From: a bacterium
GTDB lineage: Bacteria > UBP7 > UBA6624 > JBBIMK01
Reading direction: 5' to 3'
NCBI GenBank assembly: GCA_037444445.1
Contig: JBBIMK010000006.1
Span: 1 to 32,000 of the forward strand
DNA length: 32,000 nt
The notes under the pieces are model-generated. The model was not told the origin of the DNA and did not search any database. It saw only the letters and a program-made list of their open reading frames with translations. A program made the position numbers and the translations under genes. Below, in pieces: positions 6,909-28,579 of this stretch. The stretch's first letter is position 1; each line of letters begins with the position of its first letter.

Positions 6909-7005
6909 TTTCTTAAGCGTGAATATGTCCGGGAAGAATAGGTGGTTCTCCGATGAGGTAAGCCCCTACAAAAGAGGGTGGTTTTGCGATAAAGTATAGT
7001 TGGCG

Positions 7006-8310: not shown

Positions 8311-9221
8311 ATCCTGAAACGATACTGATTTATCTGAAGGGTTTTGGAATCGCACTCGGCACCAGCCCCATCCTCATCTGGGTGGCGAGGAGGGAAGGCT
8401 GGCTGGATATGCCCGATGACCGAAAAGTCCACCGCAAGCCCCTCCCCCGCATTGGTGGCATTGCGGTATTTATCGGTGCGGCCTTCGCCCTCCTCCCCCA
8501 TATCTCCTATCCGGTGGATAAAATTTTTACCATGGGCAGTGTCATTCTCTTTATCGGATTACTGGATGATATTTACGGACTTCCGGCACTCTTCAAACTG
8601 GTGACACAAATCCTGGTGGCCATCGCTCTCTGGTATGCAGGAATTCACATCCAGTTTCCAGCATCCCTGTTTGCTTCTACCCTTTTCAGTTTCTTTGTCA
8701 CTCTATGCTGGCTGTTGTTATTAATCAACGGCTTCAACCTCATAGATGGGTTAGATGGGCTTTCTACGGGAATTGGAGTGATTGCCACTCTCTCCCTGTT
8801 ATTTTTATTATGGGGTGGGGGCTATCCACCCTCTTTATTCCTGGCGGGGATAGCCCTGCTGGGAGTTCTGATGGGCTTCCTACCTTACAACTTTTACCCG
8901 GCGCGAATTTTCCTCGGTGACTCCGGCTCAACCTTCATCGGATTCTTTTTAGCCTCTCTGTATATCCCTGTGTTATCCGTGCATTTCACCTTATCTGCGT
9001 GGATAGTGCTGATGATTTTCATCGTGCCTATATCCGATGTTATCCTAACAGTGATTCGGAGGGTTCGGGTTCATCGTTCCATCCTCCAGCCGGACCGGGA
9101 GCATATCCACCATCGTTTGATGGACCGGGGGTTATCCCATCGTCGCACCGTGTATTTTCTTTACGGGCTGTCCGTGCTCTCATCCAGCCTGGCGCTTTTG
9201 CTCCGCGCCGGCTTCAGTTAG
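8307..9221 (+). CDS. Glycosyltransferase family 4 polyprenyl-phosphate sugar-1-phosphate transferase (WecA/TagO/MraY family)
   Basis: Motifs PRIGGIAVFIG, LLDDIYGL, NLIDGLDGLSTG and FLGDSGSTFIGF in a multi-TM protein. ATGA overlap with trmFO. Confidence 0.85.
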   Translation: MNPETILIYLKGFGIALGTSPILIWVARREGWLDMPDDRKVHRKPLPRIGGIAVFIGAAFALLPHISYPVDKIFTMGSVILFIGLLDDIYGLPALFKLVTQILVAIALWYAGIHIQFPASLFASTLFSFFVTLCWLLLLINGFNLIDGLDGLSTGIGVIATLSLLFLLWGGGYPPSLFLAGIALLGVLMGFLPYNFYPARIFLGDSGSTFIGFFLASLYIPVLSVHFTLSAWIVLMIFIVPISDVILTVIRRVRVHRSILQPDREHIHHRLMDRGLSHRRTVYFLYGLSVLSSSLALLLRAGFS

Positions 9222-10038
9222 AGTCATCCTCTGCTGACTTTCTCTTGCCGCGTTCTGCGTGCATTACATTGAGAGTGAGTAAATTCAGGGTCATATTATC
9301 CCATGCCGCAATGATTTCACACCCGAGTTCCTGCGAGAGGGCTCTGGCAATCCCCCAGGGATGATTCTGAAGCATAGTCATGCCATAGTGGGTAAGGATG
9401 GTTTTTCGGGGGCGAACCTGGGAGATAATTTCACGGGTTTCTTCCAGAGAGAGGTGGTCAATTTCCGGGTTTGCATGATAGAGGAGAGAATAGATGATAG
9501 CCAGGTCGCACCCTTTTGCCTGCTCCACGCCCTCCAGATTTTTCCCGTCCACAAACAGGGCGATTTTCTTCTGGTCATACTGGATGAGGAAGCGGAAGGT
9601 TTCCACACCTCCGTGGATATACCGGGCAATGGGAAGGAAGGAAAAGGGAGGAATGGAGATCGGCTGATGAGGGTGCAGGGGGACGATTTTTTGAACATAG
9701 GGGCGTAAGTAACGAAAGATGACCGGGTCCTCCCCTTCCAGGGCATCTGCCGGGGCATACACGGCACCACGGACAGATTTTCCACCTTCCGTCATCGCTT
9801 CTATCATCACATTGATGTCGGCGCAGTGGTCCAGATGCTTATGGGTGAGGAGGATAGCGGAAAGAGAGGCGGGGTTTAATTTTTTATATAGCACCCGGGA
9901 AAGGGCTTCTGGCCCCGGGTCAATATGAACCGCGGTGTAGCCACTTTCCAGCCAGATACCTCCGGTGGCACGGAACTGCTTGAAACTGGCAATGCGGCCG
10001 CCGCCGGTGCCTAAAAATAAGATGCGTCCTTCTTCCAT
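9214..10038 (-). CDS. MBL-fold metallo-hydrolase
   Basis: ILFLGTGGG... and the HxHxDH motif (LLTHKHLDHCAD). Convergent 8-nt overlap with the GT4 gene. Confidence 0.8.
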   Translation of the reverse strand: MEEGRILFLGTGGGRIASFKQFRATGGIWLESGYTAVHIDPGPEALSRVLYKKLNPASLSAILLTHKHLDHCADINVMIEAMTEGGKSVRGAVYAPADALEGEDPVIFRYLRPYVQKIVPLHPHQPISIPPFSFLPIARYIHGGVETFRFLIQYDQKKIALFVDGKNLEGVEQAKGCDLAIIYSLLYHANPEIDHLSLEETREIISQVRPRKTILTHYGMTMLQNHPWGIARALSQELGCEIIAAWDNMTLNLLTLNVMHAERGKRKSAEDDSN

Positions 10039-10065
10039 GTGGGAGGCAGGAGAAAGAAAGGAAAT

Positions 10066-10992
10066 TTACTTTTTGCCGACAGCCAGGCCGAGCTTCTTAA
10101 AGACGCCATCAATTTTCATCGTGTGAGTCCAATCCAGTTTTGCGATGTTAGCCCCCATAGCAACAGCGAGGAGTTCTGTCAAGTAGAAGACCGGGATTTC
10201 TGCACGCTCTCCCACGAGCCGTAAGGCGTCGCGCTGAAGGGCATCCAGATTATGGAAACAGATGGGGCAAATCACCACGATGGCTTCTGCTCCCACATGG
10301 AGAGCCTCTTTCAAAATTTCTGCCGTCATTCGGAGCCCTTCTTCGGGAGCGCTTTGCGTGAGATAACTGCCGTTGCAGGTGGTAGCGTGGCGCCAGGGCA
10401 ACGGCTCTGCACCCGCAGATTTTAAATACTTCTCCATCAAATCTATCTTCTCCGGGTCGCCTAAATCCTCCGTATAAACCGAGGGGCGAATCGTTTTGCA
10501 CCCATAATATGCCACCACTTTCAGCCCCTTCAGGTCCCGTAGCAGAAATTTTTTAATCTTTGCCGAAGCCTGATGCTCTTCAAAAATCTCTAATAGATTC
10601 TTAATTTCCGTTTTCCCGCTGTAAGGAAGCCCGATGGCTTGCAGGGACTTGTTTTTAATTTCCTCCGCATCGGTATGAGGAGGAAAATCCATGGCATAGC
10701 CATCGCCGTTTTCCATAAAATGCCTGGAGAAGGAGAAAGCGCGATAACAATGGGGGCAAGGGGTAAAGAGAACCGGATTTTTCGTTAACTTCTCCGAGAC
10801 TGCCAGATTGCGGAGAGGATAAGCCACCCGGGTGAGAAGGTCCAGCCGTTCCCCTGCCTCTCCGCCACAGCAACTCCAGTTGAGCACTTCCTCGGTTTCC
10901 ACGCCCAACTGCTTGCACACCACATCCAGCGATTTTTCATAATTGGTGTCATAATTCTTGATGTGGCATCCCGGAAAATAAGAAACCCTCAT
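10066..10992 (-). CDS. Heterodisulfide reductase subunit B-like protein (CCG-domain protein)
   Basis: MRVSYFPGCH...WSCCGG (CCG domain), second repeat YYGCKTIRP...TTCNGSY. Overlaps the upstream 4Fe-4S gene by 4 nt. Confidence 0.75.
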   Translation of the reverse strand: MRVSYFPGCHIKNYDTNYEKSLDVVCKQLGVETEEVLNWSCCGGEAGERLDLLTRVAYPLRNLAVSEKLTKNPVLFTPCPHCYRAFSFSRHFMENGDGYAMDFPPHTDAEEIKNKSLQAIGLPYSGKTEIKNLLEIFEEHQASAKIKKFLLRDLKGLKVVAYYGCKTIRPSVYTEDLGDPEKIDLMEKYLKSAGAEPLPWRHATTCNGSYLTQSAPEEGLRMTAEILKEALHVGAEAIVVICPICFHNLDALQRDALRLVGERAEIPVFYLTELLAVAMGANIAKLDWTHTMKIDGVFKKLGLAVGKK

Positions 10993-11603
10993 TTTTTCTC
11001 CCTTCCCTTTCTGGGAGGCGTGGGTTTCATTTCTGGAGGAGGCTCTTCAGCAATTCCGTGCAGTTTTTTATAGAATTCAAAAAAAGAGGGAACATCGCGG
11101 ATGGTGGCGAGGGGTTCTCGTTTTTGTTTTTTGGCAAACATACCCAGAACGCCGCCTCCGCCACCGGGTCTGGATGGGGTTCCCCAGCCCAGGTCCTCCC
11201 CTGGCTCCAGCCTGCCATAAGTTTTCACCTGCTCCAGGAAGCGAGCGTAAAAATCCACTCTGGATTTACTTCGCTCTGTGCGGGATTCTTTCAGCGATAA
11301 GTATCGGAGGACATCCAGCACTTCCGCCACGGGAATCTCTACCGGGCACCTCTGGGTGCAAAGTTTGCAGTCCGTGCATTCCCACAGGTCTTTAGAGGTC
11401 AGGACCCGGTCCCGCTCACCGAGACGAATCAGTTCAATGATTTTCATCGGAGCGAACTCCATATTGACCCTGGCTGGACAGCAGGCAGTGCAGATTCCGC
11501 AGAGGGTGCAAGTCCGCAGGTCGGTGCCCAGAGTATCCCGCACCCAGTTCAGAAAATCCAGTTGCCTCTTTTGCTTCTCAATCGTCAGTTGTATTCCCAT
11601 CAA
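10989..11603 (-). CDS. Heterodisulfide reductase subunit C-like 4Fe-4S dicluster protein
   Basis: Two ferredoxin-type motifs, CTLCGICTACCP and CTDCKLCTQRCP. TTG at 11603 is immediately followed by ATG at 11600; either may be the start. Confidence 0.7.
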   Translation of the reverse strand: MMGIQLTIEKQKRQLDFLNWVRDTLGTDLRTCTLCGICTACCPARVNMEFAPMKIIELIRLGERDRVLTSKDLWECTDCKLCTQRCPVEIPVAEVLDVLRYLSLKESRTERSKSRVDFYARFLEQVKTYGRLEPGEDLGWGTPSRPGGGGGVLGMFAKKQKREPLATIRDVPSFFEFYKKLHGIAEEPPPEMKPTPPRKGREKK

Positions 11604-11743
11604 TCACATAGATTACGGGATAAACTTCCTTTTGTCAAACACCTGGCTCTTTTTCCTCCTCTGCTTTTAGATTTTCTCTATAAAGAGGGGTATAAAAAAA
11701 TCGTTCAGGGTGGTCAGAATCTCTTGACCCAAGGGATTGAATA

Positions 11744-11867
11744 GCGATTCTGAAAAGTCCTGCGGTGAAAAAGAGGGAAAATGAGCGAAGAAAGCCTGAG
11801 AATTGCCCGGGCGCAGGGGCTCTACTGACTGACTACCCCATACATCCTTCTCTCCTTAACCAATTTG
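11744..11867 (-). repeat. Copy A of a ~125-nt repeat family (inverted relative to copies B and C), upstream of the hdrC-like gene
   Basis: The reverse complement caaattggttaaggagagaaggatgtatggggtagtcagtcagtagagcccctgcgcccgggcaattctcaggctttcttcgctcattttccctctttttcaccgcaggacttttcagaatcgc aligns with 18027-18155 and 20163-20237 at roughly 85-90% identity by eye. Confidence 0.85.
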
Positions 11868-11896
11868 TATGAATAAAGGGAATGTAAAAAAGTCAA
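11868..11896 (-). promoter_or_regulatory. Possible sigma70-type promoter immediately upstream of repeat copy A
   Basis: On the minus strand, TTGACT (11896-11891) is followed by TATTCA/TTCATA at 15-17 nt spacing. This aligns with the much better promoter upstream of copy C. Confidence 0.3.
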
Positions 11897-12092
11897 TCTT
11901 TTTTAGACGGGTTAAGAAACTTGTCGGGACGAGATGCCGATAGAACCTATCGGGATTAAGGAATAATCGGGGTGCCCTTGTTTATGTCATTCAAGACATT
12001 GAGGATTCTCTTCTGGATATTCAGGACTTCTCTGGTGAGAAATTCGGAGGGCAGGGTTCTCATTCGCCATAAGCGTTCGTTCCATGCGAAAC

Positions 12093-12632
12093 TTATGTCT
12101 TCCAGGAGCGCTTAACGGAGCATCCGAAAGGCTCCTTAAAGGTGAAGGGAGAGGGTTTGCCTGCCAGCAAGGCGTCCAGAACCTGGAGGAGATAGTTCTG
12201 GGTAGGCTTCGTGTTGCTCCAGGACTGGTCATCAATGGCGCCTTCGTAGGCAAGACTTGCATCGGGACCCAGCACGAATACATGAGGAGTTGTGATGGCA
12301 CCAAAGATATCCGCAATTTTGTTGCCTCGGTCGCGAAGGATGGGGAAACGAATGGAGCGGGCTTTCATAATCCGGCGGATTTCATCATCGTCATAGATGG
12401 CATTGGAATCTATAGCCAGGAGTTTCACCCCTTTCTCAGCATAAGAGTCCAGAAGAGAATTGAAGAAAGCGTCGTAACGGGCAGAAGCAGGGCATTCTGC
12501 GGACCACCAATCTATCACCACGATATGCCCCAGGAGGTCCGATAGCCGACAGGTTTTTCCATCCATACTCGGGAGCGTAAAATCGGGAACCTTCTCACCG
12601 ATTTTCACCTGTTTTCTTTGAAGAAATTCCAC
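12093..12632 (-). CDS. Thioredoxin-fold (AhpC/TSA-redoxin-like) family protein
   Basis: VPDFTLPSMDGKTCRLSDLLGHIVVIDWWSAECPASARY...LLAIDSN...FPILRD...ITTPHVFVLG...YEGAIDD matches the thioredoxin-family-protein architecture. The active site is CPAS (single Cys). Confidence 0.75.
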   Translation of the reverse strand: MEFLQRKQVKIGEKVPDFTLPSMDGKTCRLSDLLGHIVVIDWWSAECPASARYDAFFNSLLDSYAEKGVKLLAIDSNAIYDDDEIRRIMKARSIRFPILRDRGNKIADIFGAITTPHVFVLGPDASLAYEGAIDDQSWSNTKPTQNYLLQVLDALLAGKPSPFTFKEPFGCSVKRSWKT

Positions 12633-12647
12633 GGTCTCACCTCATTT

Positions 12648-13202
12648 TCACAGGGATTGCAGAGCCCTCTCGGCATGGGAAAGAATTTTCAAGAAATTGG
12701 AGCGGCGGAACCAGGGCTTCATCGCCATAAACCGCTGGTGAGAGGAAGGAGTAAAAAGAGCAGAGGGCGGTGGGTATTCTTCGTTCTCGGGGTAAAACTT
12801 CAGGGCTTCCTGAACCCCTTCACAGATGGATTGAAGCGCCCGCTTCTGATGAACCTTTTCCTCCATTTTATCCGCCTCTTCCCACCGCTCCATATAATAC
12901 AGCACATAAATCCCCCACATCGTAACATCCAGCAATTCCGAGGGCTCACTGGAAGAGTTCAGAACACCCTCCTTTTCCTTGCCAGAATCCACATCCCCAA
13001 AAGAAGATATGTCAAATTGAAACTCACGACAAGAGTGGCAGACAGCACACTCTGCCAGAAAACAACTCACCGGTGTTCCATCCTTCTGAAGAAACCGAAC
13101 TTCCCTCTGATAAGAATAGTCTCCACCACAGGAACAGGCTTGCATAGCCAGGTAGAGGCGTTCTTCTCTCTCTGAGTGGGCTTTCCTCAGCTGGGCTTCC
13201 AT
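12648..13202 (-). CDS. Hypothetical Cys-rich (zinc-ribbon-like) protein
   Basis: 184-aa ORF lying 16 nt upstream of the thioredoxin-fold gene on the same strand. Cys cluster CSCGG...CFLAECAVCHSC. No family recognised. Confidence 0.5.
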   Translation of the reverse strand: MEAQLRKAHSEREERLYLAMQACSCGGDYSYQREVRFLQKDGTPVSCFLAECAVCHSCREFQFDISSFGDVDSGKEKEGVLNSSSEPSELLDVTMWGIYVLYYMERWEEADKMEEKVHQKRALQSICEGVQEALKFYPENEEYPPPSALFTPSSHQRFMAMKPWFRRSNFLKILSHAERALQSL

Positions 13203-13245
13203 CTATCTTAATTATAACCCGAAAAGGGAATCCTGACATTCATTC

Positions 13246-15048
13246 TCATTTTCCCTGTAACCACTTCAGAGTTTTCATTATAAGAACTATTCCTTCCCAG
13301 CGGGTCAGGAAAGAGGATTTTTGAACTAAAGAAACGAAATCCGAAGAGAACCCGAGGTAATTCAGAAGAGGTTCTAAAAAGGGTGAATCCTCTGGAATAG
13401 AAAAAGAAATCCCATTCAAGGTGAAAAACTGTGAGAGAAACTGGAATGCAAATTTAAGAGTAACTAAATTTTCCGAAGTGGAAACCGAAGGGAGAGTCAA
13501 GTTAGATTGAGGCGAGAGTGAACGATGAACGGCTACCCTGAATAGGCGAGAAAAATCCTTCTCCCGAAGAGGGTCGTTCAGGTGAAAATCATTGGTGTAG
13601 CCACCGGCAAGAAGCCCCAGGTCCACCGCTTGAAGCAGTGCCTCTCTTTCTGGATAGCTGGCAAAAGGCGAAGGATAAGAAGCAGGAAGATGGAGGAGGA
13701 TTCCCTTACGCTTTAGAAGGTTTTGAAAAACAGGAAAGGACTGAATGGAATACGCCAGCTGGCGGAAAGAGAGAGAATGCTGGATGGAGAAAAGGGCAGC
13801 ATAACCTGCTACCTCACCTTCTACAATGGAAAGGGGAATGACCCGTGCGCTGCCAGCAGCGAGGGATGAATAACCTGCGGACCTTCCCACCACCAGGAGG
13901 TTTTCCACTTTCAGCGGGACGAGAGAACGAAAAGGAATGGTATAGGAAGAAGGCCTGCCGTAGACAATGCCAGGGTCTTCAGGGCTCACCGGTTGATGGT
14001 CCACCGGATATGAGCCCACAGCGATAGAATCGGGGAAGTCACGATTTTCCAGAATATCCGATAACTTCAGGGTGTATTCAGACTGAATATGACGAGTTTC
14101 CCGAACATAGAGTTTTTCTGCTGTGGAAAGAAGAAAAGCCTTCTCAAAGCCATGGAGATTAGACCGAAGGAATTCCACTATGCGGGAGGCTTCCTCCTTC
14201 CCCTCCTTCATCGCTTCCGCAACCGAGGAGAAGTCAAAAGGGTCCACGCCAAAAATGAGCAGAGCACTGATAAGAACACTCCCATCCCTTTGATGACCAA
14301 TGTTGAGCCCTCTCAGCTTGAAACGAGAAGAAGAGGGTGAATATTGTTGGGCTAAGTTCAGGAATCCCCAGGCGGAATGAGCCTGGATGCTGGAAAGCCC
14401 CGATTGATGGGCGATTGTAAACCGGGCGAAAGATTTCCAGTCCACTCCACCGACTTCAAAAATCAGGGTGTCGGCCATCCGCTCCTTCAGGTGCATATCT
14501 TCACGCCCATAGAAGAACGGCACACCGCTGATTGCAGCCAAATCCCCATCTCCAGTAGCATCAATAAATCGCTTGCCGAAAATCTGAAGCAGGACATCTC
14601 CCGTTTTGCACTCCACGCCGATGAGTGTATTCTGTTGCAAGATGGCTTTTTGCAGGCGACAGTTCAAAAGGAGGGTGATATTTTTTTCACGAGCGAGAAC
14701 CGATTGAAAAAATTTCTTTGCCCGAAAAATATCAAAGGAAGAGCGATTTCCGATGGCACGGTAGAACTCCTGGAAAAAGCCCCGTGTGAGGAGAAGCCCG
14801 TTGGGGTCTGTATTCATATCCAGCATATTCAATCTGCCGAGGATAAAAGTCCCGCCCGGCACCGGGTCAGGAGAAACGAGGAGGGTGCTCAGTCCGGAGC
14901 GTGCAGAAGCCACCGCCGCCGCTATTCCCTCCGGCTCACTCCCAGCCACCACCACATCATAACCTGCTTCCACCGAAGAACTGCTGAGCAATAGAGATAC
15001 AACAGCACTGACCACACTGAGGTTCCGCCAAAATCCCATACGCCACAT
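13246..15048 (-). CDS. Secreted FAD-dependent-oxidoreductase-family protein (PF12831-like) with a degenerate dinucleotide-binding motif
   Basis: Signal peptide MWRMGFWRNLSVVSAVVSLLLSSSSVEA. Then YDVVVAGSEPEGIAAAVASARSGLSTLLVS...PGGT and DATGDGDLAA. The GxGxxG motif reads GSEPEG, so the middle Gly is replaced. Confidence 0.7.
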   Translation of the reverse strand: MWRMGFWRNLSVVSAVVSLLLSSSSVEAGYDVVVAGSEPEGIAAAVASARSGLSTLLVSPDPVPGGTFILGRLNMLDMNTDPNGLLLTRGFFQEFYRAIGNRSSFDIFRAKKFFQSVLAREKNITLLLNCRLQKAILQQNTLIGVECKTGDVLLQIFGKRFIDATGDGDLAAISGVPFFYGREDMHLKERMADTLIFEVGGVDWKSFARFTIAHQSGLSSIQAHSAWGFLNLAQQYSPSSSRFKLRGLNIGHQRDGSVLISALLIFGVDPFDFSSVAEAMKEGKEEASRIVEFLRSNLHGFEKAFLLSTAEKLYVRETRHIQSEYTLKLSDILENRDFPDSIAVGSYPVDHQPVSPEDPGIVYGRPSSYTIPFRSLVPLKVENLLVVGRSAGYSSLAAGSARVIPLSIVEGEVAGYAALFSIQHSLSFRQLAYSIQSFPVFQNLLKRKGILLHLPASYPSPFASYPEREALLQAVDLGLLAGGYTNDFHLNDPLREKDFSRLFRVAVHRSLSPQSNLTLPSVSTSENLVTLKFAFQFLSQFFTLNGISFSIPEDSPFLEPLLNYLGFSSDFVSLVQKSSFLTRWEGIVLIMKTLKWLQGK

Positions 15049-15136
15049 TTTATCTTACACCTTTCCTGATACAACTTACCTGCACTTTCTTCTCCGCCGG
15101 GAGCGAAAGCCACGAGTATAATTAAAGAGAACAAGG

Positions 15137-15883
15137 ATGAGAGTTTCGTTATTTGTAACCTGCATCATAGATTACCTGTTTCCACAGGTAGGAGTGGCGG
15201 TGGTGAAGACTCTTCAAAAATTGGGGGTGGAAGTGGTATTCCCGATGGAACAGACCTGCTGTGGTCAGCCAGCGTTCAATTACGGGTATCGGGATGAAGC
15301 GAGGCGAGTGGCACGCCACTGCTTGAAGGCACTGGAAAAATCCGAATGTGTGGTTTGCCCGTCAGGCTCTTGCACTGCGATGATTCGCCATCACTACTCG
15401 GAACTGTTTGAAAATGAACCTGAATTCCAGAAGAAGTCACAGGAGATTGCCTGCAGGACTTTTGAGTTCACAGAGTTCCTCACCAGAGTTATGAAAACCT
15501 CTTTCTTGCGGGAAGTAACCCGCACCGCTACAGAAAAAAAAGAGAAAGTGTGTTATCACGATTCCTGCCATCTTTCAAGAGAGCTGGGCATACGGGAGGA
15601 GCCTCGTGCTCTGTTGCGCCATCTGCCTGGAATAGAAGTGGTGGAAATGGAGAAAGCGGATGAGTGCTGTGGGTTTGGCGGGCTGTTTTCAGCCTATCTG
15701 CCGGAGGTGGCAGGGGCAATAGCCGACGGAAAAATTGACAGCATCCTGAAATGCAGCGCCAGCAGTGTCGTGGCGTGCGATATGGGTTGCCTGATGCACC
15801 TGCATGGGCGGATTGCCCGCCGAAAACTCCCCATTCAGTGCCTCCATATTGCAGAAGTCCTGACGAAATGGATGGGGGAATGA
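15137..15883 (+). CDS. lutA: Lactate utilization protein A (LutA/YkgE; CCG-domain Fe-S oxidoreductase)
   Basis: MRVSLFVTCIIDYLFPQVGVAVVKTLQKLGVEVVFPMEQTCCGQP, second repeat YHDSCHLSRE...ECCGFGG. Followed by lutB and lutC. Confidence 0.9.
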   Translation: MRVSLFVTCIIDYLFPQVGVAVVKTLQKLGVEVVFPMEQTCCGQPAFNYGYRDEARRVARHCLKALEKSECVVCPSGSCTAMIRHHYSELFENEPEFQKKSQEIACRTFEFTEFLTRVMKTSFLREVTRTATEKKEKVCYHDSCHLSRELGIREEPRALLRHLPGIEVVEMEKADECCGFGGLFSAYLPEVAGAIADGKIDSILKCSASSVVACDMGCLMHLHGRIARRKLPIQCLHIAEVLTKWMGE

Positions 15884-15900
15884 AAAGAAGAGGGGAATAG

Positions 15901-17325
15901 ATGCCCATTCATTTCCGAAACAACTCTGTGCGAGCACTCTCCGATGAGTTCCTGCAATCCGCATTGAGACGAACGGGAACCCACTTTCGGCAGGGAAGAA
16001 ATCGCGCCGTTGAGGCGACACCGGACTGGGAGGAGTTACGAAGCCGTGCCCATGAAATCAAAAAAGAGGTCATCCACCACCTCAATTTTTACCTGACACA
16101 ACTCATTGAAAATGTGGAAAGGAAAGGGGGGCATGTGCACCAGGCTCGTACTGCGGAAGAAGCCTGCCGGGTCGTAGAAGGGATTGCCCGTTCGCACCGG
16201 GTTCAAACCATCGTCAAGTCCAAATCTATGGTGTCCGAGGAGATAGAACTGAATGCCCACCTGCAAAAAGCCGGGTTTTATGTGGTGGAGACGGACCTGG
16301 GAGAGTTTATTCTTCAACTGGCGGGCGAAAAGCCCTCCCATATCATCGCTCCGGCTGTTCATAAATCCCGAGAGCAGGTGGCAATGCTGTTCGCCCAGAA
16401 ACTCGGATTACCGGAGGAGATGGCTCGGGAAACGAGTATTGAGGCTCTCACGGAGATTGCGCGAAAGTATCTGAGGGGAAAATTTTTGCAAGCAGAGGTG
16501 GGGGTTACCGGAGTGAATTTCGCCGTGGCAGAAACGGGCACCCTCGTGATTGTAGAAAATGAAGGGAATGCGCGATTCACCACCACCTATCCAAAAGTTC
16601 ACATTGCTCTTATGGGGATAGAAAAAATCATCCCTCGCTGGGAAGATTTGAGTATTTTTCTAACGCTTTTACCCCGCTCCGCCACCGGGCAGATGATGAC
16701 CTCCTATGTGTCCTTTTTGAATGGCTCCAGAGGGGAAGATGAAGAGGATGGACCGGTAGAACTACATCTTGTGCTTCTGGACAACGGGCGGTCAAAAATG
16801 CTCAAACACCCCCTCCTCCAACAGACGCTTTATTGCATTCGGTGTGGGGCTTGCTTGAACTTCTGCCCGGTATATCAAACGGTGGGGGGACATGCGTATG
16901 GTGGTGTCTATTCCGGACCCATCGGTGCCATCCTGACCCCTCAAATGCAAGGATTCCCCCACGCCCTTCCCCTGCCCTATGCCTCCAGTCTGTGCTCTGC
17001 CTGCGCGGATGTCTGCCCGGTTAAGATTCCTATCCCACAGATTCTGCTGTCTCTTCGCTACCAGAGCCGAAAGTCTGACACTTTGCCATTTCGTTCCAAC
17101 TTTCCACTGGAAAGGCTGGCATTTTATTCCTGGTCCGTTCTCCTCTCCTCTCCCTGGTTGTATCGCTGGATTTTCCCTCTGCTTTTAAGATTTTCCTGGC
17201 TTCTAAGTCATCCTCTTTTCAGCCGGGTCGCCCCCGCCATTTTATCCTCCTACCTGAAGGAACACGCTCTCCCCTCTCTGCCATCCAAATCTTTTTATCA
17301 GAGATGGAAAGAGTATGAACGCTGA
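15901..17325 (+). CDS. lutB: Lactate utilization protein B (LutB/YkgF; 4Fe-4S protein with LUD domain)
   Basis: GVTGVNFAVAETGTLVIVENEGNARF (LUD domain). Ferredoxin motifs CIRCGACLNFCP and CSACADVCP. Operon context. Confidence 0.9.
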   Translation: MPIHFRNNSVRALSDEFLQSALRRTGTHFRQGRNRAVEATPDWEELRSRAHEIKKEVIHHLNFYLTQLIENVERKGGHVHQARTAEEACRVVEGIARSHRVQTIVKSKSMVSEEIELNAHLQKAGFYVVETDLGEFILQLAGEKPSHIIAPAVHKSREQVAMLFAQKLGLPEEMARETSIEALTEIARKYLRGKFLQAEVGVTGVNFAVAETGTLVIVENEGNARFTTTYPKVHIALMGIEKIIPRWEDLSIFLTLLPRSATGQMMTSYVSFLNGSRGEDEEDGPVELHLVLLDNGRSKMLKHPLLQQTLYCIRCGACLNFCPVYQTVGGHAYGGVYSGPIGAILTPQMQGFPHALPLPYASSLCSACADVCPVKIPIPQILLSLRYQSRKSDTLPFRSNFPLERLAFYSWSVLLSSPWLYRWIFPLLLRFSWLLSHPLFSRVAPAILSSYLKEHALPSLPSKSFYQRWKEYER

Positions 17326-17863
17326 CTTTTTACCCATTTTCACCCGTTCGGCAGAAGCGGTGGGGTGTAGTGTAGATACAGCGGAAACGATGGATGTCGC
17401 TCGCACAAAAGTGATACAAATCCTTCAATCCTATTCAGCGAAAGTCGTATGGATGTGGACCACGCCTCTTCTAAAATCTATGAATCTGGAGGAAGAATTG
17501 CTGGACTCCGGAATTACTTTCGTGAGTGGTAAAGCAGGGGAAATCCACTTGTGGGAGCAAGGCGAGGTTGGGATTACGGAGGTGGATTATGGGATAGCGG
17601 AGACCGGGACGATGGTGTTGGGTGGAGGGGCTGGTCGCCCCCGCTCTGCCTCCCTCTTGCCCTCCATCCACCTGGGTCTCCTTCCCGTCTCCCGTATCCT
17701 GCCCTCCTTGAAATCTTTCTTTCATCTGAATCATTCTGCTTTCAAATCTAACACTTTCTTCTTCATCACGGGTCCCAGCCGCACTGCGGATATTGAGCAA
17801 ACTCTAACCCTCGGCGTTCACGGCCCCCGAAGAGTTCACATCCTTCTTCTTGCCTTTTCCTGA
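17315..17863 (+). CDS. lutC: Lactate utilization protein C (LutC/YkgG; LUD domain)
   Basis: GITEVDYGIAETGTMVL...SLLPSIHLGLL...FFITGPSRTADIEQTLTLGVHGPRRVHILLL. 11-nt overlap with lutB. Confidence 0.8.
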   Translation: MNADFLPIFTRSAEAVGCSVDTAETMDVARTKVIQILQSYSAKVVWMWTTPLLKSMNLEEELLDSGITFVSGKAGEIHLWEQGEVGITEVDYGIAETGTMVLGGGAGRPRSASLLPSIHLGLLPVSRILPSLKSFFHLNHSAFKSNTFFFITGPSRTADIEQTLTLGVHGPRRVHILLLAFS

Positions 17864-18026
17864 AAGACCCCTTCGTCTTCATCTATCCAGGCATCCGAAC
17901 CCTGAAGAGAAGAAATGTTTCAGGGTTATGGGAAATGCGAAAAAATGTAGGGGAGGAGCTTGTCTCCTTCCGTCAGAATAAGCGGGACTCCCGAATTATT
18001 CAGATTGATTTTTTAAAAATATTTCA

Positions 18027-18155
18027 CAATTGGTTGAGGGGACTAAGCGATGTATGGGGTAGGTAGGCAGGCAGTAGAGTCCCTGCGCACGGGCAATTCT
18101 CGGGCTTTCTTCGCTCATTTTCTCTTCTTTTCACTGCAGGACTTTTCAGAACCGC
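18027..18155 (+). repeat. Copy B of the ~125-nt repeat family, about 55 nt upstream of the first subtilase gene
   Basis: caattggttgaggggactaagcgatgtatggggtaggtaggcaggcagtagagtccctgcgcacgggcaattctcgggctttcttcgctcattttctcttcttttcactgcaggacttttcagaaccgc. Full-length match to copy A (reverse complement) and to the first ~75 nt of copy C. Confidence 0.85.
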
Positions 18156-18209
18156 CATGAAATCCCTTGATTTTTCCCACAAAAAATCTTATTATGGAGG
18201 TGATAGGAG

Positions 18210-19562
18210 ATGACGAAAGGTCATCCTTCTTTCTTTTCGTGGTGTCTTCCAGTGAGGGCGGTAGTTCGCTCCACCGCCTTCGGACTTTTTGCTTTCCTAA
18301 CAGCGTGTCTTCTCATATTCTGGAGAACACCTTTATACGCTCAGGAACCTGTAGAACCTTATGTGGCAGACCAGTTAGTTCTTGACTTGTCGCTCCTTTC
18401 CGAGGAGGATCGCGATGCTTTATTTACTCAGTATAACTTGACTCATTTAGATTCAATTCCAGAATGGGGAATGTACCTCGTTCAGACACCGCCTGGTCAA
18501 GCACCGACGCTGAAGGACACCCTTTCTACTGTCGTGGGGGTGACAATAGTAGAGTTAAACTACATTAGAACGCTCTACGATGACTTCCCCCAAGATTTCT
18601 ATTTTCCTTACCAGTGGGGCCTGCATAATACTGCGCAAACCGCTTGTGGGCAACAAGGAACCTTGGATGCAGATGTGGATGCCCCAGAAGCGTGGAGCTG
18701 GAGCACAGGAAGTAACTCTGTTTTAGTGGCAGTATTAGACGCTGGAATTCAAGTAGATCACCCAGATTTAATGGGCAAAATCGCTGGATCCGTGAATTTT
18801 GTTAGCCCTACTTTCAGAGATATAATACTGCCCCGGGGTCATGGCACTCAGGTCGCGGGGATTATTGCCGCGGCGACTGATAACTTTTTCCTCACGGGTT
18901 CATCCTTAACACCGGTGAAGAACTATCTCGGAGTTGCTGGAAGTGACTGGCACGCCAAACTCCTGAATGTAAAGGTCTGCGTAGACACCGGTAGTTGTTA
19001 TGACTGGTATACGGCAAAAGGAATTCAGTGGGCTATAGAGGCTGGAGCGAAAGTTATCAACATGAGTTTTGGTGGAAGGGCCCCATCGGATTTTATGAAC
19101 TACGCTCTTAAAGTAGCAGATGAGCGAGGAGTGACAGCGGTCGCGGCAGCTGGTAACGACCATTCTAACGTGCGTACTTATCCCTGTTCATCGGGGAAGA
19201 CCATCTGTGTGGGTGGCACTGATAATCGCGATGGCTTGTATATCAACTCGAACTGGGGCACGTGGGTGCATGTTGTTGCTCCCGCTTTCTGTATTGCCAC
19301 AACGATAACTAATAACGACTATACTTCTCTTGACTACGCAGATAGCGGAACATCCCTTGCAGCACCTTTTGTTTCTGGCTTGGCGTCACTCATCATCGCG
19401 CGTTATCCAAGTGTGCTTCAATGTCCGTGGTATTATTTAGGATGCACGGATGACGCAGTCCGCAACATTATATTTTATATGGGCGTTGACCCGATTCCTG
19501 GCACAGGCACTTATTGGTGGAAAGGCAGGGTAAATTTTTGGAAGGCATTACGAGGTTATTAA
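18210..19562 (+). CDS. Secreted/anchored subtilisin-like serine protease (peptidase S8) with I9-type propeptide
   Basis: Catalytic motifs VAVLDAGIQVDHPDL (Asp), HGTQVAGIIAA (His), SGTSLAAPFVSGLASL (Ser). Propeptide end VTIVELNYIRT. Hydrophobic N-terminus. GGAGGTG lies 5 nt upstream of the ATG. Confidence 0.9.
   Translation: MTKGHPSFFSWCLPVRAVVRSTAFGLFAFLTACLLIFWRTPLYAQEPVEPYVADQLVLDLSLLSEEDRDALFTQYNLTHLDSIPEWGMYLVQTPPGQAPTLKDTLSTVVGVTIVELNYIRTLYDDFPQDFYFPYQWGLHNTAQTACGQQGTLDADVDAPEAWSWSTGSNSVLVAVLDAGIQVDHPDLMGKIAGSVNFVSPTFRDIILPRGHGTQVAGIIAAATDNFFLTGSSLTPVKNYLGVAGSDWHAKLLNVKVCVDTGSCYDWYTAKGIQWAIEAGAKVINMSFGGRAPSDFMNYALKVADERGVTAVAAAGNDHSNVRTYPCSSGKTICVGGTDNRDGLYINSNWGTWVHVVAPAFCIATTITNNDYTSLDYADSGTSLAAPFVSGLASLIIARYPSVLQCPWYYLGCTDDAVRNIIFYMGVDPIPGTGTYWWKGRVNFWKALRGY
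18227..18293 (+). repeat. Signal-peptide-coding module duplicated at 20324-20389 (about 95% identical by eye)
   Basis: ttctttcttttcgtggtgtcttccagtgagggcggtagttcgctccaccgccttcggactttttgct versus tctttctttttgtggtgtcttccagtgagggcggtagttcgccccaccgccttcggactttttgct. The flanking coding sequence is unrelated. Confidence 0.85.
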
Positions 19563-19590
19563 AAACTTCATAAAAGGGAGGTGTATTAGA

Positions 19591-20112
19591 GTGAATTTTC
19601 CGGCTGGATGGAGGAAAGGCGCACAACTATTCTCAACAGCTATTCTTTTGACAATCGGACTTTACAGCTGCAACTGGGGAGGTGAAGGTGGTGAGGCGGT
19701 TTTTCCACTTTTTGAGTATCATAAATTCCCATCTGATTTGGGATTATCCTTTGAAATAATACCTGATAAGGACCAGTATAAAGAAGGCGAGCAAATCCAA
19801 CTGACCTTACGACTTACTAACCAAACAGTTCAAGGGATAGAACTATCTTACACTCGTGGAAACGAATTTGTGGTCTACATTTTTAACGCTCAAAATCAAG
19901 TTGTGGCAGCAGGATATTGGAATTGCATCGGTGAAAAATGTCCTGCTGTGATCACTATCATTCAAAATGAGACAATTCTTCCAGGTGCATTTTTTGAAAG
20001 AGTCGGAACTGTGAAAAAAAGGTTACTGTCAGGCACATATACAATTCGTGCTGACTCACTTGTGCATCCCGCTGATGGAGGCATCTACATGCCTGTCGTT
20101 ATTGTTCCCTAA
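19591..20112 (+). CDS. Putative lipoprotein, divergent BsuPI-like (intracellular proteinase inhibitor fold) protein
   Basis: GGGAGGTG precedes the GTG start. Signal plus lipobox-like GLYSC. YKEGEQIQLTLRLTNQT...ELSYTRGNEFVVYIFN...LLSGTYTIRAD parallels the clearer BsuPI homologue at 28580-29050 and B. subtilis Ipi (as recalled). Confidence 0.5.
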   Translation: MNFPAGWRKGAQLFSTAILLTIGLYSCNWGGEGGEAVFPLFEYHKFPSDLGLSFEIIPDKDQYKEGEQIQLTLRLTNQTVQGIELSYTRGNEFVVYIFNAQNQVVAAGYWNCIGEKCPAVITIIQNETILPGAFFERVGTVKKRLLSGTYTIRADSLVHPADGGIYMPVVIVP

Positions 20113-20130
20113 TATTTTTGGGAGCAGGTC

Positions 20131-20159
20131 TTGACTTTCTTGAATGAATCCTTTATAAT
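20131..20159 (+). promoter_or_regulatory. Near-consensus sigma70 promoter (TTGACT-17 nt-TATAAT) directly upstream of repeat copy C
   Basis: TTGACT at 20131-20136, a 17-nt spacer, TATAAT at 20154-20159. The predicted transcription start falls at the first bases of the repeat. Confidence 0.55.
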
Positions 20160-20162
20160 CCA

Positions 20163-20237
20163 AAATTGGTTAAGGGAGTAAGCGATGTATAGGTCAGTCA
20201 GTCAGTAGAGCCCCTGCGCCCGGGCAATTCTCAGGCT
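20163..20237 (+). repeat. Copy C (3'-truncated, ~75 nt) of the repeat family, upstream of the subtilase remnant
   Basis: aaattggttaagggagtaagcgatgtataggtcagtcagtcagtagagcccctgcgcccgggcaattctcaggct. Similarity to copies A and B stops at 20237, where a GC-rich hairpin begins. Confidence 0.8.
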
Positions 20238-20240
20238 CAA

Positions 20241-20273
20241 GAAAAAACCTTGCCCCCTTTTCAAGGGGGGCAA
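20241..20273 (-). terminator. Intrinsic-terminator-like hairpin read on the minus strand (8-bp GC-rich stem followed by GGTTTTTTC)
   Basis: Stem 20250-20257 (ttgccccc) pairs with 20266-20273 (gggggcaa), with an 8-nt loop. On the minus strand the T6 run is the complement of 20242-20247. No minus-strand gene lies upstream of it. Confidence 0.35.
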
Positions 20274-20302
20274 AATCTGATAACTTTAAGGAGGGATACG
20301 GG

Positions 20303-20688
20303 ATGACACGAAAGTGTCAAAAATCTTTCTTTTTGTGGTGTCTTCCAGTGAGGGCGGTAGTTCGCCCCACCGCCTTCGGACTTTTTGCTCTGATGTGCTT
20401 GCTCTACCTATCTCAAATCGCGTGGGCAGAAGGATTCCCCTCCTGCCTCACACCGCCAGAGGAAATCGAGGAACATCTTTTTCTGCTCCTCAAGTATCAG
20501 CGCTGGCTCACTTGCTGAAAAGCATCCATCCAGATTGGCTGCCGGGCCCCATTACTCAGCGGATTATGCAAATCTCAGAGCCATATCCAGCCTCGTGCGG
20601 TGAGTTCTCCCTACCAAGGGGTAAAATTGATTTTTGCCGTGCAGTTTGGGAAGATTCCCTGTGGCCTACGCACTGTCAGACTCCATGA
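20303..20688 (+). pseudogene. Decayed subtilase (S8) gene: intact RBS, signal peptide and C-terminal Ser-motif region, but the Asp/His core is deleted and the two parts are in different frames
   Basis: Frame 2 from ATG 20303 gives MTRKCQKSFFLWCLPVRAVVRPTAFGLFALMCLLYLSQIAWA-EG..., stopping at 20518. Frame 1 gives ...GNRGTSFSAPQVSALAHLLKSIHPDW...GKIDFCRAV, stopping at 20686-20688. No Asp or His catalytic motifs are present. Confidence 0.75.
20324..20389 (+). repeat. Second copy of the signal-peptide-coding module (see 18227-18293)
   Basis: Near-identical 66 nt, including a conserved 9-bp hairpin (gagggcggt / accgccttc). Confidence 0.85.
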
Positions 20689-20816
20689 AGGAAAGAGCTC
20701 CCTTCGTTGTAACTTTTATGACCATTGGTATTGTTATCTCTCTGATGTTAGCCCTTCTTTCTTACTTTTATCCAATTCTAAAGGCATGGCGAATCTGGTA
20801 TTTAACACATTTATGA
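20685..20816 (+). CDS. Candidate 43-aa single-TM mini-protein (P1)
   Basis: MKERAPFVVTFMTIGIVISLMLALLSYFYPILKAWRIWYLTHL. ATGA overlap with the stop of the subtilase remnant. No obvious SD. Could instead be a fragment of a decayed membrane-protein gene. Confidence 0.3.
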   Translation: MKERAPFVVTFMTIGIVISLMLALLSYFYPILKAWRIWYLTHL

Positions 20817-20947
20817 AGCACTTGACTGCTCTCTTTCTTATTGGCGCTACCTATTTCTTTCTTACAATAGATTTCTTGCTTTCTCTATTGCTCTTGTTGA
20901 TGATTCTTGGAAAATACCCCCTTATGCGGGTCCTCACAGGAGGTTAA
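20813..20947 (+). CDS. Candidate 44-aa single-TM mini-protein (P2)
   Basis: MKHLTALFLIGATYFFLTIDFLLSLLLLLMILGKYPLMRVLTGG. ATGA overlap with the P1 stop. An alternative ATG lies at 20786. Confidence 0.3.
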   Translation: MKHLTALFLIGATYFFLTIDFLLSLLLLLMILGKYPLMRVLTGG

Positions 20948-20950
20948 GAT

Positions 20951-21097
20951 ATGAGTTTCCCTGAAAATCAGGGAGAAAACATCTCTACGCGGGCTTTTCA
21001 TCTCCTGCTCTTGCTGATGGCTCTTTTTCTGAGTTTACTATTTAACATTTTCTGGCTTTCAGATTTTTTCTACTACCTATTTCCCACCTTATTATAA
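20951..21097 (+). CDS. Candidate 48-aa single-TM mini-protein (P3)
   Basis: MSFPENQGENISTRAFHLLLLLMALFLSLLFNIFWLSDFFYYLFPTLL. AGGAGG at 20937-20942 lies 8 nt upstream of the ATG. Same frame as P2, separated by a single TAA. Below the 60-aa cutoff of the ORF track. Confidence 0.35.
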   Translation: MSFPENQGENISTRAFHLLLLLMALFLSLLFNIFWLSDFFYYLFPTLL

Positions 21098-21098
21098 C

Positions 21099-21224
21099 AT
21101 GATGACTTGGCGAGGCATTTTTTTATTGTTATGGATTGCTCTGATACTCTCTCTCATCCTGAATTTATTAGGGTTTCAATTTTATATCATCCAGGGGTAT
21201 TTGAAAGTGACCTGGCTCGCTTAA
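21099..21224 (+). CDS. Candidate 41-aa single-TM mini-protein (P4)
   Basis: MMTWRGIFLLLWIALILSLILNLLGFQFYIIQGYLKVTWLA. Starts 1 nt after the P3 stop. Below the ORF-track cutoff. Confidence 0.3.
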   Translation: MMTWRGIFLLLWIALILSLILNLLGFQFYIIQGYLKVTWLA

Positions 21225-21267
21225 AAAATATGAACGATTTTATGGGGAAGCAGGTAATTAAGAAGAT

Positions 21268-22041
21268 ATGGTAAAGTTAATCATAAAAATATTACTTATT
21301 TTTATTATTCTATTATTCGTTATTACCTCCATATTAGAATTCTTTTCAAGTGTATGGGGAGTAAAAATCCAGAACCCCTTCATACCGGGAGGTTTCAGGA
21401 ACATTTATAATAGAATCCGATATTTTTTAGCCCTGAATACAGGTGGAAAGTTTCTTTTGATATTCACGGGATTTCTAATATTAATCCTTTATTCATTATT
21501 TTTCAAGCCGTTTCACTACAACACTGAAATTCTTTTAGCAGTTGGACCCTTTCCGGTATTCTCACAGTTGTTATTATATCTTGATTATACAAGGCGTGGG
21601 TTATACAGGCGGAATAGAGAGTATTCTACCTGTGACGCCTGTTTCCAGAATCTGGATAAAAGGGTGTGGAAGTTCCTGGGGCTCCCTATGGTAATCACGG
21701 CAAGTATCGTAGGAAGTATTGGAATTGCGCGTTCTTATCCTCCCCAGGTGGCGGTTCTTTCCGGCATAATCTTTTTATTATTTGCCGTATGGCTGGGGGC
21801 GAGTTCTGCTTATACGCCCACTGAGCATCTAATACGATGGAGTGGAATCCTCCTACTCTGGATGGGTGTTGCTCTATATTTGCAATATTTTACCTATATG
21901 ACTCAGTATCATCCAGAATGGTTGAACAGAAGTCGCTGGATTACCGGGATTCTGTTTCTGCTGAATCTCATTTTTGTAGCACTTTCAGTCATCAAAGGTA
22001 GAAGAATAGAGCATTTAGAGTCAGAGTTAAAAAAGAATTAA
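21268..22041 (+). CDS. Hypothetical polytopic membrane protein (about 6-7 TM) in a very AT-rich segment
   Basis: 257-aa ORF with repeated hydrophobic segments (LLIFIILLFVITSIL, FLLIFTGFLILILYSLFF, VLSGIIFLLFAVWLG, ILLLWMGVALYL, ITGILFLLNLIFVALSVI). No family recognised. Confidence 0.55.
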   Translation: MVKLIIKILLIFIILLFVITSILEFFSSVWGVKIQNPFIPGGFRNIYNRIRYFLALNTGGKFLLIFTGFLILILYSLFFKPFHYNTEILLAVGPFPVFSQLLLYLDYTRRGLYRRNREYSTCDACFQNLDKRVWKFLGLPMVITASIVGSIGIARSYPPQVAVLSGIIFLLFAVWLGASSAYTPTEHLIRWSGILLLWMGVALYLQYFTYMTQYHPEWLNRSRWITGILFLLNLIFVALSVIKGRRIEHLESELKKN

Positions 22042-22085
22042 TGTATCACCTGGTTAGGGTCTATTGACTCAAAAAGTAGAATGGC

Positions 22086-22114
22086 TTGCAACTTTCTGAA
22101 AGGTAGTTTATAAT
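22086..22114 (+). promoter_or_regulatory. Sigma70-type promoter upstream of rpmF (TTGCAA-17 nt-TATAAT)
   Basis: TTGCAA at 22086-22091, a 17-nt spacer, TATAAT at 22109-22114. A 6-bp hairpin cctgac/gtcagg lies in the leader at about 22146-22168. Confidence 0.45.
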
Positions 22115-22194
22115 TAACCACGATTTAGGAATATCACCCTAATACCTGACTTCACAGGGAGGTCAGGCGGGAGGGGTGAAAAGAAAGAAAAGAA

Positions 22195-22395
22195 ATGGCG
22201 GTTCCAAAGCGGAAATTACCGAGGTTTCGGGTGCGGCGGCGGCGGTCTCGCTGGGTGGCTGAATTGAACTCCCCGGCTCTGGTCATTTGCCCTCGTTGTC
22301 ACAAGAAGAAGCCAGCACACCACATTTGCCCTCATTGTGGATTTTACCGAGGAGAATTCATCCAAACACCTGTAACCTCTGAAAAAGAAAAATAA
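22195..22395 (+). CDS. rpmF: 50S ribosomal protein L32
   Basis: MAVPKRKLPRFRVRRRRS... with zinc ribbon CPRC...CPHCGFY. Confidence 0.9.
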   Translation: MAVPKRKLPRFRVRRRRSRWVAELNSPALVICPRCHKKKPAHHICPHCGFYRGEFIQTPVTSEKEK

Positions 22396-28404: not shown

Positions 28405-28579
28405 AAAACCCCACATCTTGCCCCTTTCGCCGGCACATTATCCGTTGATAGGGATGAGGATGCGGTAAAGGTGCCTTGGATAGGAGGAGTCGCTGTGCCT
28501 CCCTGTCCTTCATTGTGAGCAAAAAATACTCTCCCATCAAAGGGGAAGTGATATTCTTTATATCAGGCAGGGATGAGGA

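Follow-up and report, generated by a model that had tools for sequence, protein, structure and literature searches.

The window analysed here is a stretch of 32,000 nt (positions 1 to 32,000, forward strand, of contig JBBIMK010000006.1, assembly GCA_037444445.1) from a bacterium of the lineage UBP7. It carries three copies of an intergenic repeat, one in front of an operon headed by an hdrC-like gene, one in front of an intact S8 subtilase gene, and one in front of the remnant of an S8 gene. The copies, termed A (11730-11900, minus strand), B (17995-18169, plus strand), and C (20128-20237, plus strand), resemble each other far above chance. When they were compared with the window by BLASTN, A and B were 84.5% identical over 142 nt (E 7e-39), A and C 92% over 76 nt (E 3e-24), and B and C 81% over 89 nt (E 4e-17). 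A repeat finder recovered the same pairs, and the rest of the window gave nothing scoring better than E of about 0.05. Each copy is oriented towards its downstream gene, as an earlier, preliminary description of this DNA had noted.

Alignment reveals that the copies are modular, with each of four modules present or absent depending on the copy. The first module, P, extends from the -35/-10 region to the putative transcription start, opens at AGATTGAYT with a -35-like box, and occurs in all three copies at about 80% ungapped identity with many indels. The second, mod1, is also present in all three, with ungapped identities of 96% (A-C), 90.5% (A-B), and 89% (B-C). Mod2 is found only in A and B (87% ungapped), and mod3 only in B and C (18192-18293 and 20286-20389; 87.6% with gaps, 91% ungapped). 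Mod3 spans the start of the S8 gene, with its Shine-Dalgarno (SD) sequence, its ATG, and 28 initial codons. The modules are arranged as follows.

11869-11900, minus strand: P of copy A, with a TTGACT -35 box at 11896-11891 and only a poor -10 (TTCATA or CATACA)
11793-11868, minus strand: mod1 of copy A, with AATTGG, an SD-like AAGGAG, ATG at 11845-11843, a 7-codon upstream open reading frame (uORF) encoding MYGVVSQ and a stop, the tract (GTCA)2, and then GAGCCCCTGCGCCCGGGCAATTCTCAGGCT
11730-11792, minus strand: mod2 of copy A, a pyrimidine-rich tract ending in ...CGCAGGACTTTTCAGAATCGCTATTCAATCCCTTG and aligned with 18107-18169 of copy B
11646-11729, minus strand: A-specific tail without a counterpart in the Joint Genome Institute (JGI) relative L008, containing AAAATCT...GGAGG, which may be what is left of the SD region of mod3
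17994-18026, plus strand: P of copy B, with TTGATT at 18005-18010 and a spacer deletion of about 10 nt that leaves no properly spaced -10
18027-18106, plus strand: mod1 of copy B, with the tract (GGTA)2(GGCA)2, whose extra 4 nt give a 36-codon uORF (18050-18160)
18107-18169, plus strand: mod2 of copy B, from the alignment with A
18192-18293, plus strand: mod3 of copy B, with SD GGAGG, ATG at 18210, and the first 28 S8 codons
20128-20162, plus strand: P of copy C, with TTGACT at 20131-20136, a 17-nt spacer, and TATAAT at 20154-20159
20163-20237, plus strand: mod1 of copy C, with a uORF encoding MYRSVSQ and a stop (ATG at 20185-20187) and the tract (GTCA)3
20245-20278, no strand assigned: strong GC hairpin in the place of mod2 in copy C, with a U-run on the minus strand only
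20286-20389, plus strand: mod3 of copy C, with SD AAGGAGG and ATG at 20303

The three copies of the preliminary description are thus retained with different boundaries. Upstream, the likeness passes through the -35 box and reaches 11900 in A, about 18003 in B, and 20128 in C. Copy C had been held to begin exactly at the transcription start of its promoter; the promoter belongs to the repeat and does not bound it. Downstream, the likeness of A and B continues to 11730 and 18169, beyond the ends given earlier, and the second block common to B and C (mod3) had been missed. The hairpin at 20245-20278 has a stem of 10-13 bp and resembles a terminator of minus-strand transcription, although that strand carries no gene in the vicinity.

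Copies B and C belong to a small protease locus, which is delimited by the following features.

17982-17993, plus strand: hairpin GCGGGACTCCCG closing the LUD (lactate-utilisation-type) operon, the last sequence common with L008
18210-20112, plus strand: intact cassette, with an S8 subtilase gene (18210-19562, 450 aa) and a gene for a BsuPI-type protease inhibitor (19591-20112)
20303-20688, plus strand: decayed S8 gene, with a signal-peptide end (20303-20518) joined out of frame to a catalytic-Ser region (20314-20688)
22042-22077, plus strand: right junction of the locus, TGTATCACCTGG...TATTGACTCAAAAAGT, with native rpmF-upstream DNA common with JGI relatives from 22062 onwards

The gene behind copy C had been proposed to be an S8 remnant, and it is a genuine one. 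Its N-terminal 33 aa are 73% identical to those of the gene behind B, and the frame-shifted active-site piece, GTSFSAPQVSALAHLL, reaches a score of 53, where shuffles attain at most 47. The nearest other homologue of the intact S8 protein, P0136, comes from an unrelated sample, is 56% identical, and has no repeat element upstream. A further S8 and BsuPI inhibitor pair lies in the window at 27121-29050 (plus strand; L013 14582-16409) and is conserved in relatives. Its S8 protein is 41% identical to the first one, and BLASTN found no repeat copy upstream of the pair.

Two relatives allow the locus to be compared across genomes. Among 5.8 billion proteins, only two are closely related to the FAD-oxidoreductase encoded between A and B, and one of these is that of the source contig itself. 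The other, with 81% amino-acid identity, lies on JGI contig Ga0137716_10003951 (L008), a relative at about 84%. L008 stems from metagenome 3300010938, a co-assembly from the Chocolate Pots hot spring (PMC6137239), and is the only relative whose sampling site was traced. The second genome used for comparison is a sister strain with 96% nucleotide identity, found via protein-cluster mates in the Logan assembly SRR11582170 and represented by contigs L009 (SRR11582170_204403), L010 (SRR11582170_82484), and L011. L008 is syntenic with window positions 2539-17865 and lacks both copy A and the whole S8 locus. In place of the 382 nt that contain copy A (11646-12027), it has about 50 nt. Its synteny stops at the GCGGGACTCCCG hairpin, directly after which copy B and the S8 locus start, and synteny with JGI relatives resumes only at 22062, upstream of rpmF. 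Therefore, positions 17994-22061 form an island of about 4 kb that is absent from the JGI relatives. It holds copy B, the S8 and BsuPI genes, copy C, the S8 remnant, and a gene for a 257-aa membrane protein without Pfam match. At 90% identity or above, neither the sister strain nor the relative yielded an orthologue of the island S8 cassette. The island joins the side of the LUD operon to that of rpmF, ACP, and RNase III; in the relative, these two sides lie on separate contigs, which marks the island as a lineage-specific rearrangement junction.

The sister strain is informative at site A, the position of copy A, within which its contigs break. On one side, L009 5772-5845 ends in a diverged P-like sequence, 80% identical to A over 56 nt, which stops at ...AATTGGATGG / ...CATAATTGGATGG. 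On the other side, L010 begins with GAGATGACGAAAGGTCCTCCTTCTTTCTTT, in which 29 of 30 positions match window 18207-18236, the S8 start codon and hairpin of copy B (E 4e-7). The presence of an S8 start at site A of the sister strain implies that the S8 initiation region travels with the repeat. Moreover, the insert at this site ends in TGTATCACCCG...ATTGACTCAAAAAGT (L010 99-133), and the same junction is found at window 22042-22077 and at L011 14-53. This junction copy at site A is suggestive: the alignment of L010 with L011 scores 24, which was reached by none of 300 shuffles. Part of the junction, TATTG..TCAAAAA.G, is native rpmF-upstream sequence in JGI relatives. Since native rpmF-flank sequence recurs at site A, a chromosomal segment including the flank was copied there. 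Copied flanking DNA in turn argues for segmental duplication and against a transposon.

On these grounds, we consider it fairly probable that the three copies are paralogous 5' regions of a segmentally duplicated small secreted S8-subtilase cassette in this strain cluster. The full unit would run from a promoter through a leader of about 180 nt to a translation-initiation region. A tandem duplication of the cassette (promoter, leader, initiation region, S8, and inhibitor) would have given rise to B and C. Copy B would then head the intact S8-BsuPI operon and C the tandem copy, whose S8 gene later decayed to a signal-peptide end and a frame-shifted Ser-motif piece. Copy A would be an orphan relic, in which the part of the island from near C through the rpmF flank was pasted inverted between the AhpC operon and the hdrC-like promoter and afterwards worn down by deletions that differ between the two sister strains. 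Which way these duplications went, and in what order, is what we infer from the copies, and mod1 and mod2 would represent largely neutral leader sequence.

Several observations fit this history. Mod1 of A is closest to that of C (96%), which is consistent with A having been copied from the C end of the island. The proposed history accounts for the retention of mod2 in A, since C would have lost it later, and for the persistence of the S8 start at site A of the sister strain. It also accounts for the divergence of the copies (4-11%), which is of the same order as the intergenic divergence between strains (3-15%). Promoter, leader, start, and first codons are co-linear, with a gene or remnant attached, in B and C, and an S8 start is present in the sister strain as well. 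Flanking DNA was co-copied, as seen in the junction of L010 and L011 and more weakly in its match to the window. In these respects, the locus resembles familiar cases of segmental duplication, tandem or inverted, in which gene copies decay to pseudogenes and leave orphan relics of promoter and 5'-UTR. Blocks of promoter, leader, SD, start, and first codons recur co-linearly in the copies; an intact-gene, a decayed-gene, and a gene-less copy stand in one window; and flanking DNA was copied with the cassette, the copies differing by indels and near-neutral divergence. It differs from such cases in that the orphan A lies 6 kb away, inverted and adjoining the promoter of another operon, and in that parts of relic A have no identifiable source.

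Other points weigh against this interpretation. The source genome was seen as 32 kb of an 86-kb contig, and copies elsewhere in the genome are possible. Nothing in the island corresponds to the A tail (11646-11729) or to 68 nt of site A in the sister strain (L010 31-98), so that the relic does not derive from the present-day island by deletion alone. The junction alignment of L010 with the window scores 21, a value reached by 7 of 300 shuffles and hence only moderately significant. The likeness of the upstream flanks among sites A, B, and C is not significant either; a left-flank CCCG(A)ATTATTC match and a resemblance to the 3' end of the BsuPI gene were dropped as candidates on the same ground. 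Furthermore, mod1 (89-96%) is better conserved than P (about 80%, many indels), which could reflect constraint or gene conversion. Finally, either this lineage may have gained the sequence at site A or L008 may have lost it.

A dispersed origin is one alternative. The copies would then be a lineage-specific dispersed or mosaic intergenic repeat, similar to a miniature inverted-repeat transposable element (MITE) or to BOX and bacterial interspersed mosaic elements (BIME), with an outward promoter, spread by transposition or recombination and landed before the S8 genes and the hdrC-like operon. Site A is polymorphic in close relatives, being absent in L008 and of other content in the 96% sister strain, whose contigs are interrupted within the element, as they would be if that genome carried it repeatedly. 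The copies are modular with variably present modules, and the island begins directly after a terminator-like hairpin. However, a check of copy A, the 382-nt indel, and the island (17994-22061) showed none of them to end in terminal inverted repeats, no target-site duplication is clear (junction alignments with the empty site of L008 are ambiguous), and the window contains no transposase or integrase. Additionally, what recurs in the sister strain at site A is a unit with both the S8 start codon and native rpmF flank, which fits the copying of a segment and not an element with fixed ends.

The search for further copies bears on the same alternative. The core 21-mer CCCTGCGCNCGGGCAATTCTC had three matches in genome contigs of a 596-Gb collection and four in JGI metagenome contigs; none of these seven (L001-L007) extends beyond 25 nt, and they were rejected as chance. 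Viral contigs gave no match to either of two patterns, and BLAST against plasmids and phages gave one 26-nt AT-rich chance match only. Profiles built with nhmmer from three module alignments were run on 161 kb of fetched loci and the window and returned the three copies, two sister-strain fragments, and chance matches only at L001-L007. In about 78 kb of relatives' sequence, this profile search found no copies beyond the two sister-strain fragments. In 596 Gb of genomes, in JGI metagenomes, in viral, plasmid, and phage collections, and in 32 kb of the source genome, no further copies thus appeared. The idea of a small mobile element finds no support in this result or in the lack of terminal inverted repeats and, within the window, of transposase and integrase. 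The evidence essentially agrees with the local duplication relic that the preliminary description had named as the reading in case further copies were lacking.

Known interspersed repeats invite a similar comparison. Correia/NEMIS elements of Neisseria, ERIC sequences, and pneumococcal BOX elements share with the present repeat a size of about 100-170 nt, an intergenic and modular nature, an outward-facing promoter-like sequence, and presence/absence polymorphism between strains. However, the repeat of the window has no terminal inverted repeats or target-site duplication, counts three copies tied to one gene family, runs into coding sequence, and has no copies in relatives or databases. Altogether, a dispersed repeat appears unlikely.

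The preliminary description had further regarded the repeat as a source of promoters. A promoter scan confirmed the near-consensus TTGACT-17-TATAAT before copy C (20131-20159, 11/12), and among the three copies only C has sigma-70 hexamers at 16-18 nt spacing. In copy A, the TTGACT box is present as described, with a poor -10 and no site returned by the scan. A functional promoter common to the copies is thus not upheld, given the poor -10 of A and the 10-nt spacer deletion of B. Two further promoter-like sites lie close to the repeat.

18167-18195, plus strand: second promoter-like site at copy B, TTGATT-17-TATTAT (9/12 in the promoter scan), between mod2 and the S8 SD
11598-11638, minus strand: own promoter of the hdrC-like gene, with TTGACA at 11638-11633, a 17-nt spacer, TAATCT at 11615-11610, and ATG at 11600

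The second of these speaks against the proposal that copy A serves as the promoter of the hdrC-like gene, since this gene has its own conserved TTGACA-17-TAATCT promoter. The promoter lies downstream of A, and its form TTGACA-17-TAAT(C/G)T is conserved at window 11638-11598, L008 12604-12645, and L010 142-183. It is thus kept both in the 96% sister strain and in the relative at about 84% without copy A. As it is conserved where A is absent, the hdrC-like operon is independent of A. In all three genomes, the promoter of this operon (Fer4 and CCG) ends only about 10 nt ahead of the ATG; judged from the sequence, the hdrC-like mRNA would probably be leaderless or nearly so in the window, L008, and L010.

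It was also considered whether mod1-mod2 might be a functional cis-regulatory leader RNA or small RNA of the three transcription units, a uORF-based or anti-SD-based attenuator under selection. Some features are in line with this possibility. An SD-like box and ATGTAT stand at the same place in all three copies, mod1 is more conserved than the promoter part, and a near-consensus promoter lies exactly upstream of C. In A and B, the SD/AUG region of the uORF can pair with the mod2 pyrimidine tract, and the varying pairs keep the pairing, one being changed on both sides and three on one side. However, the mod1-mod2 folds of A and B are no stabler than dinucleotide shuffles on either strand (z -0.3 to +2.4), and the 128-nt fold of C, which includes 53 nt downstream of its mod1, has z -0.2. 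The RNAalifold consensus of A and B (145 columns) reaches -16.5 kcal/mol and has a single compensatory pair; that of A, B, and C reaches -10.2 kcal/mol, with no compensatory pair and several pairs broken. Both are weak and, with two and three sequences, respectively, of low power. Moreover, the uORF has 7 codons in A and C and 36 in B, and C has no mod2 at all. The module is absent upstream of the orthologous hdrC-like operon of L008, which retains its own promoter, and upstream of the S8-BsuPI pair at 27121-29050. There is no match to an Rfam family at gathering thresholds in the whole window, in agreement with the first impression that the repeat belonged to none, and at E of 10 or less two chance matches were returned over 11500-20600, both outside the copies.

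A structured leader or small RNA shared by the copies, as first proposed, is thus not borne out by the unstable folds and the weak consensus. In the long-range pairing CCTGCG...CGCAGG, the G-U pair of copy B (CCTGCG...TGCAGG) is real; the change is one-sided, the helix appears in no predicted consensus, and copy C lacks its 3' partner. Attenuators with leader peptides, such as those of erm and cat, also place a short SD-ATG uORF ahead of a hairpin in which the main gene's SD is masked. They differ from the present case, in which the uORF (7, 36, and 7 codons) is not conserved in length or sequence and ends at least about 35 nt before the hairpin, with no alternative pairing supported. We therefore judge a selected leader RNA to be improbable. 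A related idea is that mod1, with or without mod2, is a lineage-specific cis-acting RNA module, for example one in which a purine-rich decoy could compete with the S8 SD for pyrimidine anti-SD strands, or that the block of promoter, leader, and initiation region is a "portable expression head" repeatedly copied before genes in this hot-spring lineage. This seems unlikely as well.

The tetranucleotide tract within mod1 varies as had been claimed, with (GTCA)2 in A, (GTCA)3 in C, and (GGTA)2(GGCA)2, including one extra unit, in B. Contingency loci typically carry tracts of at least six tetranucleotide units within a promoter or ORF and switch a gene on or off. A phase-variable contingency locus was rejected here, the tract having only 2-4 impure units (GTCA, GGTA, GGCA). 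Its length alters only the size of the non-conserved uORF, 7 codons in A and C and 36 in B, and the tract would be a short slippage-prone microsatellite whose length changes are incidental.

The opposite strand had been suggested to encode a conserved mini open reading frame (ORF), MSEES[L/P]RIARAQGLY, behind GAGGG. A small antisense-strand protein, be it this peptide or the longer KRENERRKPENCP... frame, would have in its favour the ATG-initiated MSEES-frame ORF of A and B with its two synonymous substitutions, and a second antisense frame open for 35 aa in A and 52 aa in B. Intact conservation does not hold, however: B has lost the stop (TGA to TGC), giving a 40-aa ORF behind a degraded GAGGG box, and C has no ATG. 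No significant synonymous excess was found in any of six frames over the 98-nt ungapped block of A and B; the best frame, with 5 synonymous against 6 nonsynonymous changes, lies on the sense strand. For the 52-aa frame, 1.84 billion representative proteins yielded no real homologue, only a chance match to a repetitive 1644-aa protein, and none of nine ORFs overlapping the element is called as a gene in the protein collection. An antisense protein is thus highly implausible.

The part of the unit with predicted structure is mod3. In copy B, a hairpin (18190-18244/18245) pairs the SD and AUG of the S8 gene with CCUUCUUUCUUUUCG at -20 kcal/mol (z -3.95), and none of 200 shuffles was equally stable. 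In copy C, the hairpin at 20283-20340 (UGACAC-GAAA-GUGUCA, with the SD paired to AUCUUUCUUU) also holds the SD and AUG in its stem, at -15.9 kcal/mol and z -2.9 against shuffles. The 3' strand of the mod3 hairpin is the pyrimidine run CUUUCUUUU within S8 codons 5-12. The apical stems differ between the copies (GAUGAC/GUCAUC in B and UGACAC/GUGUCA in C), and both hairpins beat shuffles. The functional cis-element would accordingly appear to be the promoter together with the mod3 hairpin. The predicted hairpin occludes the S8 SD and AUG and would keep translation low until melted or opened. Temperature is a plausible trigger of this opening because a relative was traced to a hot spring.

Such SD-occluding arrangements are in themselves ordinary, and a thermosensor role in a hot-spring organism is one that this hairpin might have. 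With SD-sequestering hairpins and RNA thermometers of the fourU and ROSE types, it shares the predicted pairing of the S8 SD and AUG of B and C with the U/C-rich CUUUCUUUU. It differs in that the hairpins of B and C match no Rfam thermometer family, have their 3' arm inside coding sequence, and occur in two copies only.

The same region contains the best-conserved stretch of B and C, a 66-nt repeat termed D1 (18228-18293 and 20324-20389) with 97% identity, a conservation that exceeds the expectation for the n-region of a signal peptide. Within it, at 18252-18293 and 20348-20389, GGGCGGUAGUUCGC(U/C)CCACCGCCUU can form a 7-bp hairpin, and ACUUUUUGCU follows a few bases later.

Further observations concern the neighbouring genes. 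Beyond the right junction, rpmF, encoding ribosomal protein L32, has a strong promoter (TTGCAA-17-TATAAT) upstream and a leader of about 90 nt (window 22080-22200), and this promoter is conserved in L011, L013, and L014. Near site A, a small ORF lies directly after the AhpC gene (window 11956-12092, minus strand; L009 5405-5551). The sister strain has it at a length of 48 aa (MERMLMADENPSPEFLTEEVLNLQKRIMNALNDINKRPPDYSYFFNYF); in the window, an additional base shifts its frame, and in L008 it is truncated or different. The window and the sister strain also share a 184-aa ORF without Pfam match (window 12648-13202, minus strand), located between the genes for AhpC and the FAD oxidoreductase. In L008, about 70 nt stand in its place, which makes it a second strain-cluster-specific indel near site A.

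Taken as a whole, the repeat in front of unrelated genes is most likely the 5' end common to copies of a protease cassette that duplicates and decays, together with an orphan copy; a new regulatory RNA or mobile element is improbable. As we are inclined to believe, segmental duplication followed by the decay of a gene would have left these paralogous 5' regions, one more example of a familiar phenomenon. It serves as a caution that a promoter-proximal repeat family before unrelated genes can be the 5' end of a duplicated gene. For this poorly sampled lineage, it points to the rapid birth and death of a secreted S8 protease and inhibitor cassette and to a hypervariable intergenic site. The predicted hairpin occluding the SD and AUG at the start of the protease gene is a candidate for translational, possibly thermal, control. 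Furthermore, the near-consensus promoter of C before a pseudogene and the degenerate one of A before a self-promoted operon would provide raw material for regulatory rewiring.

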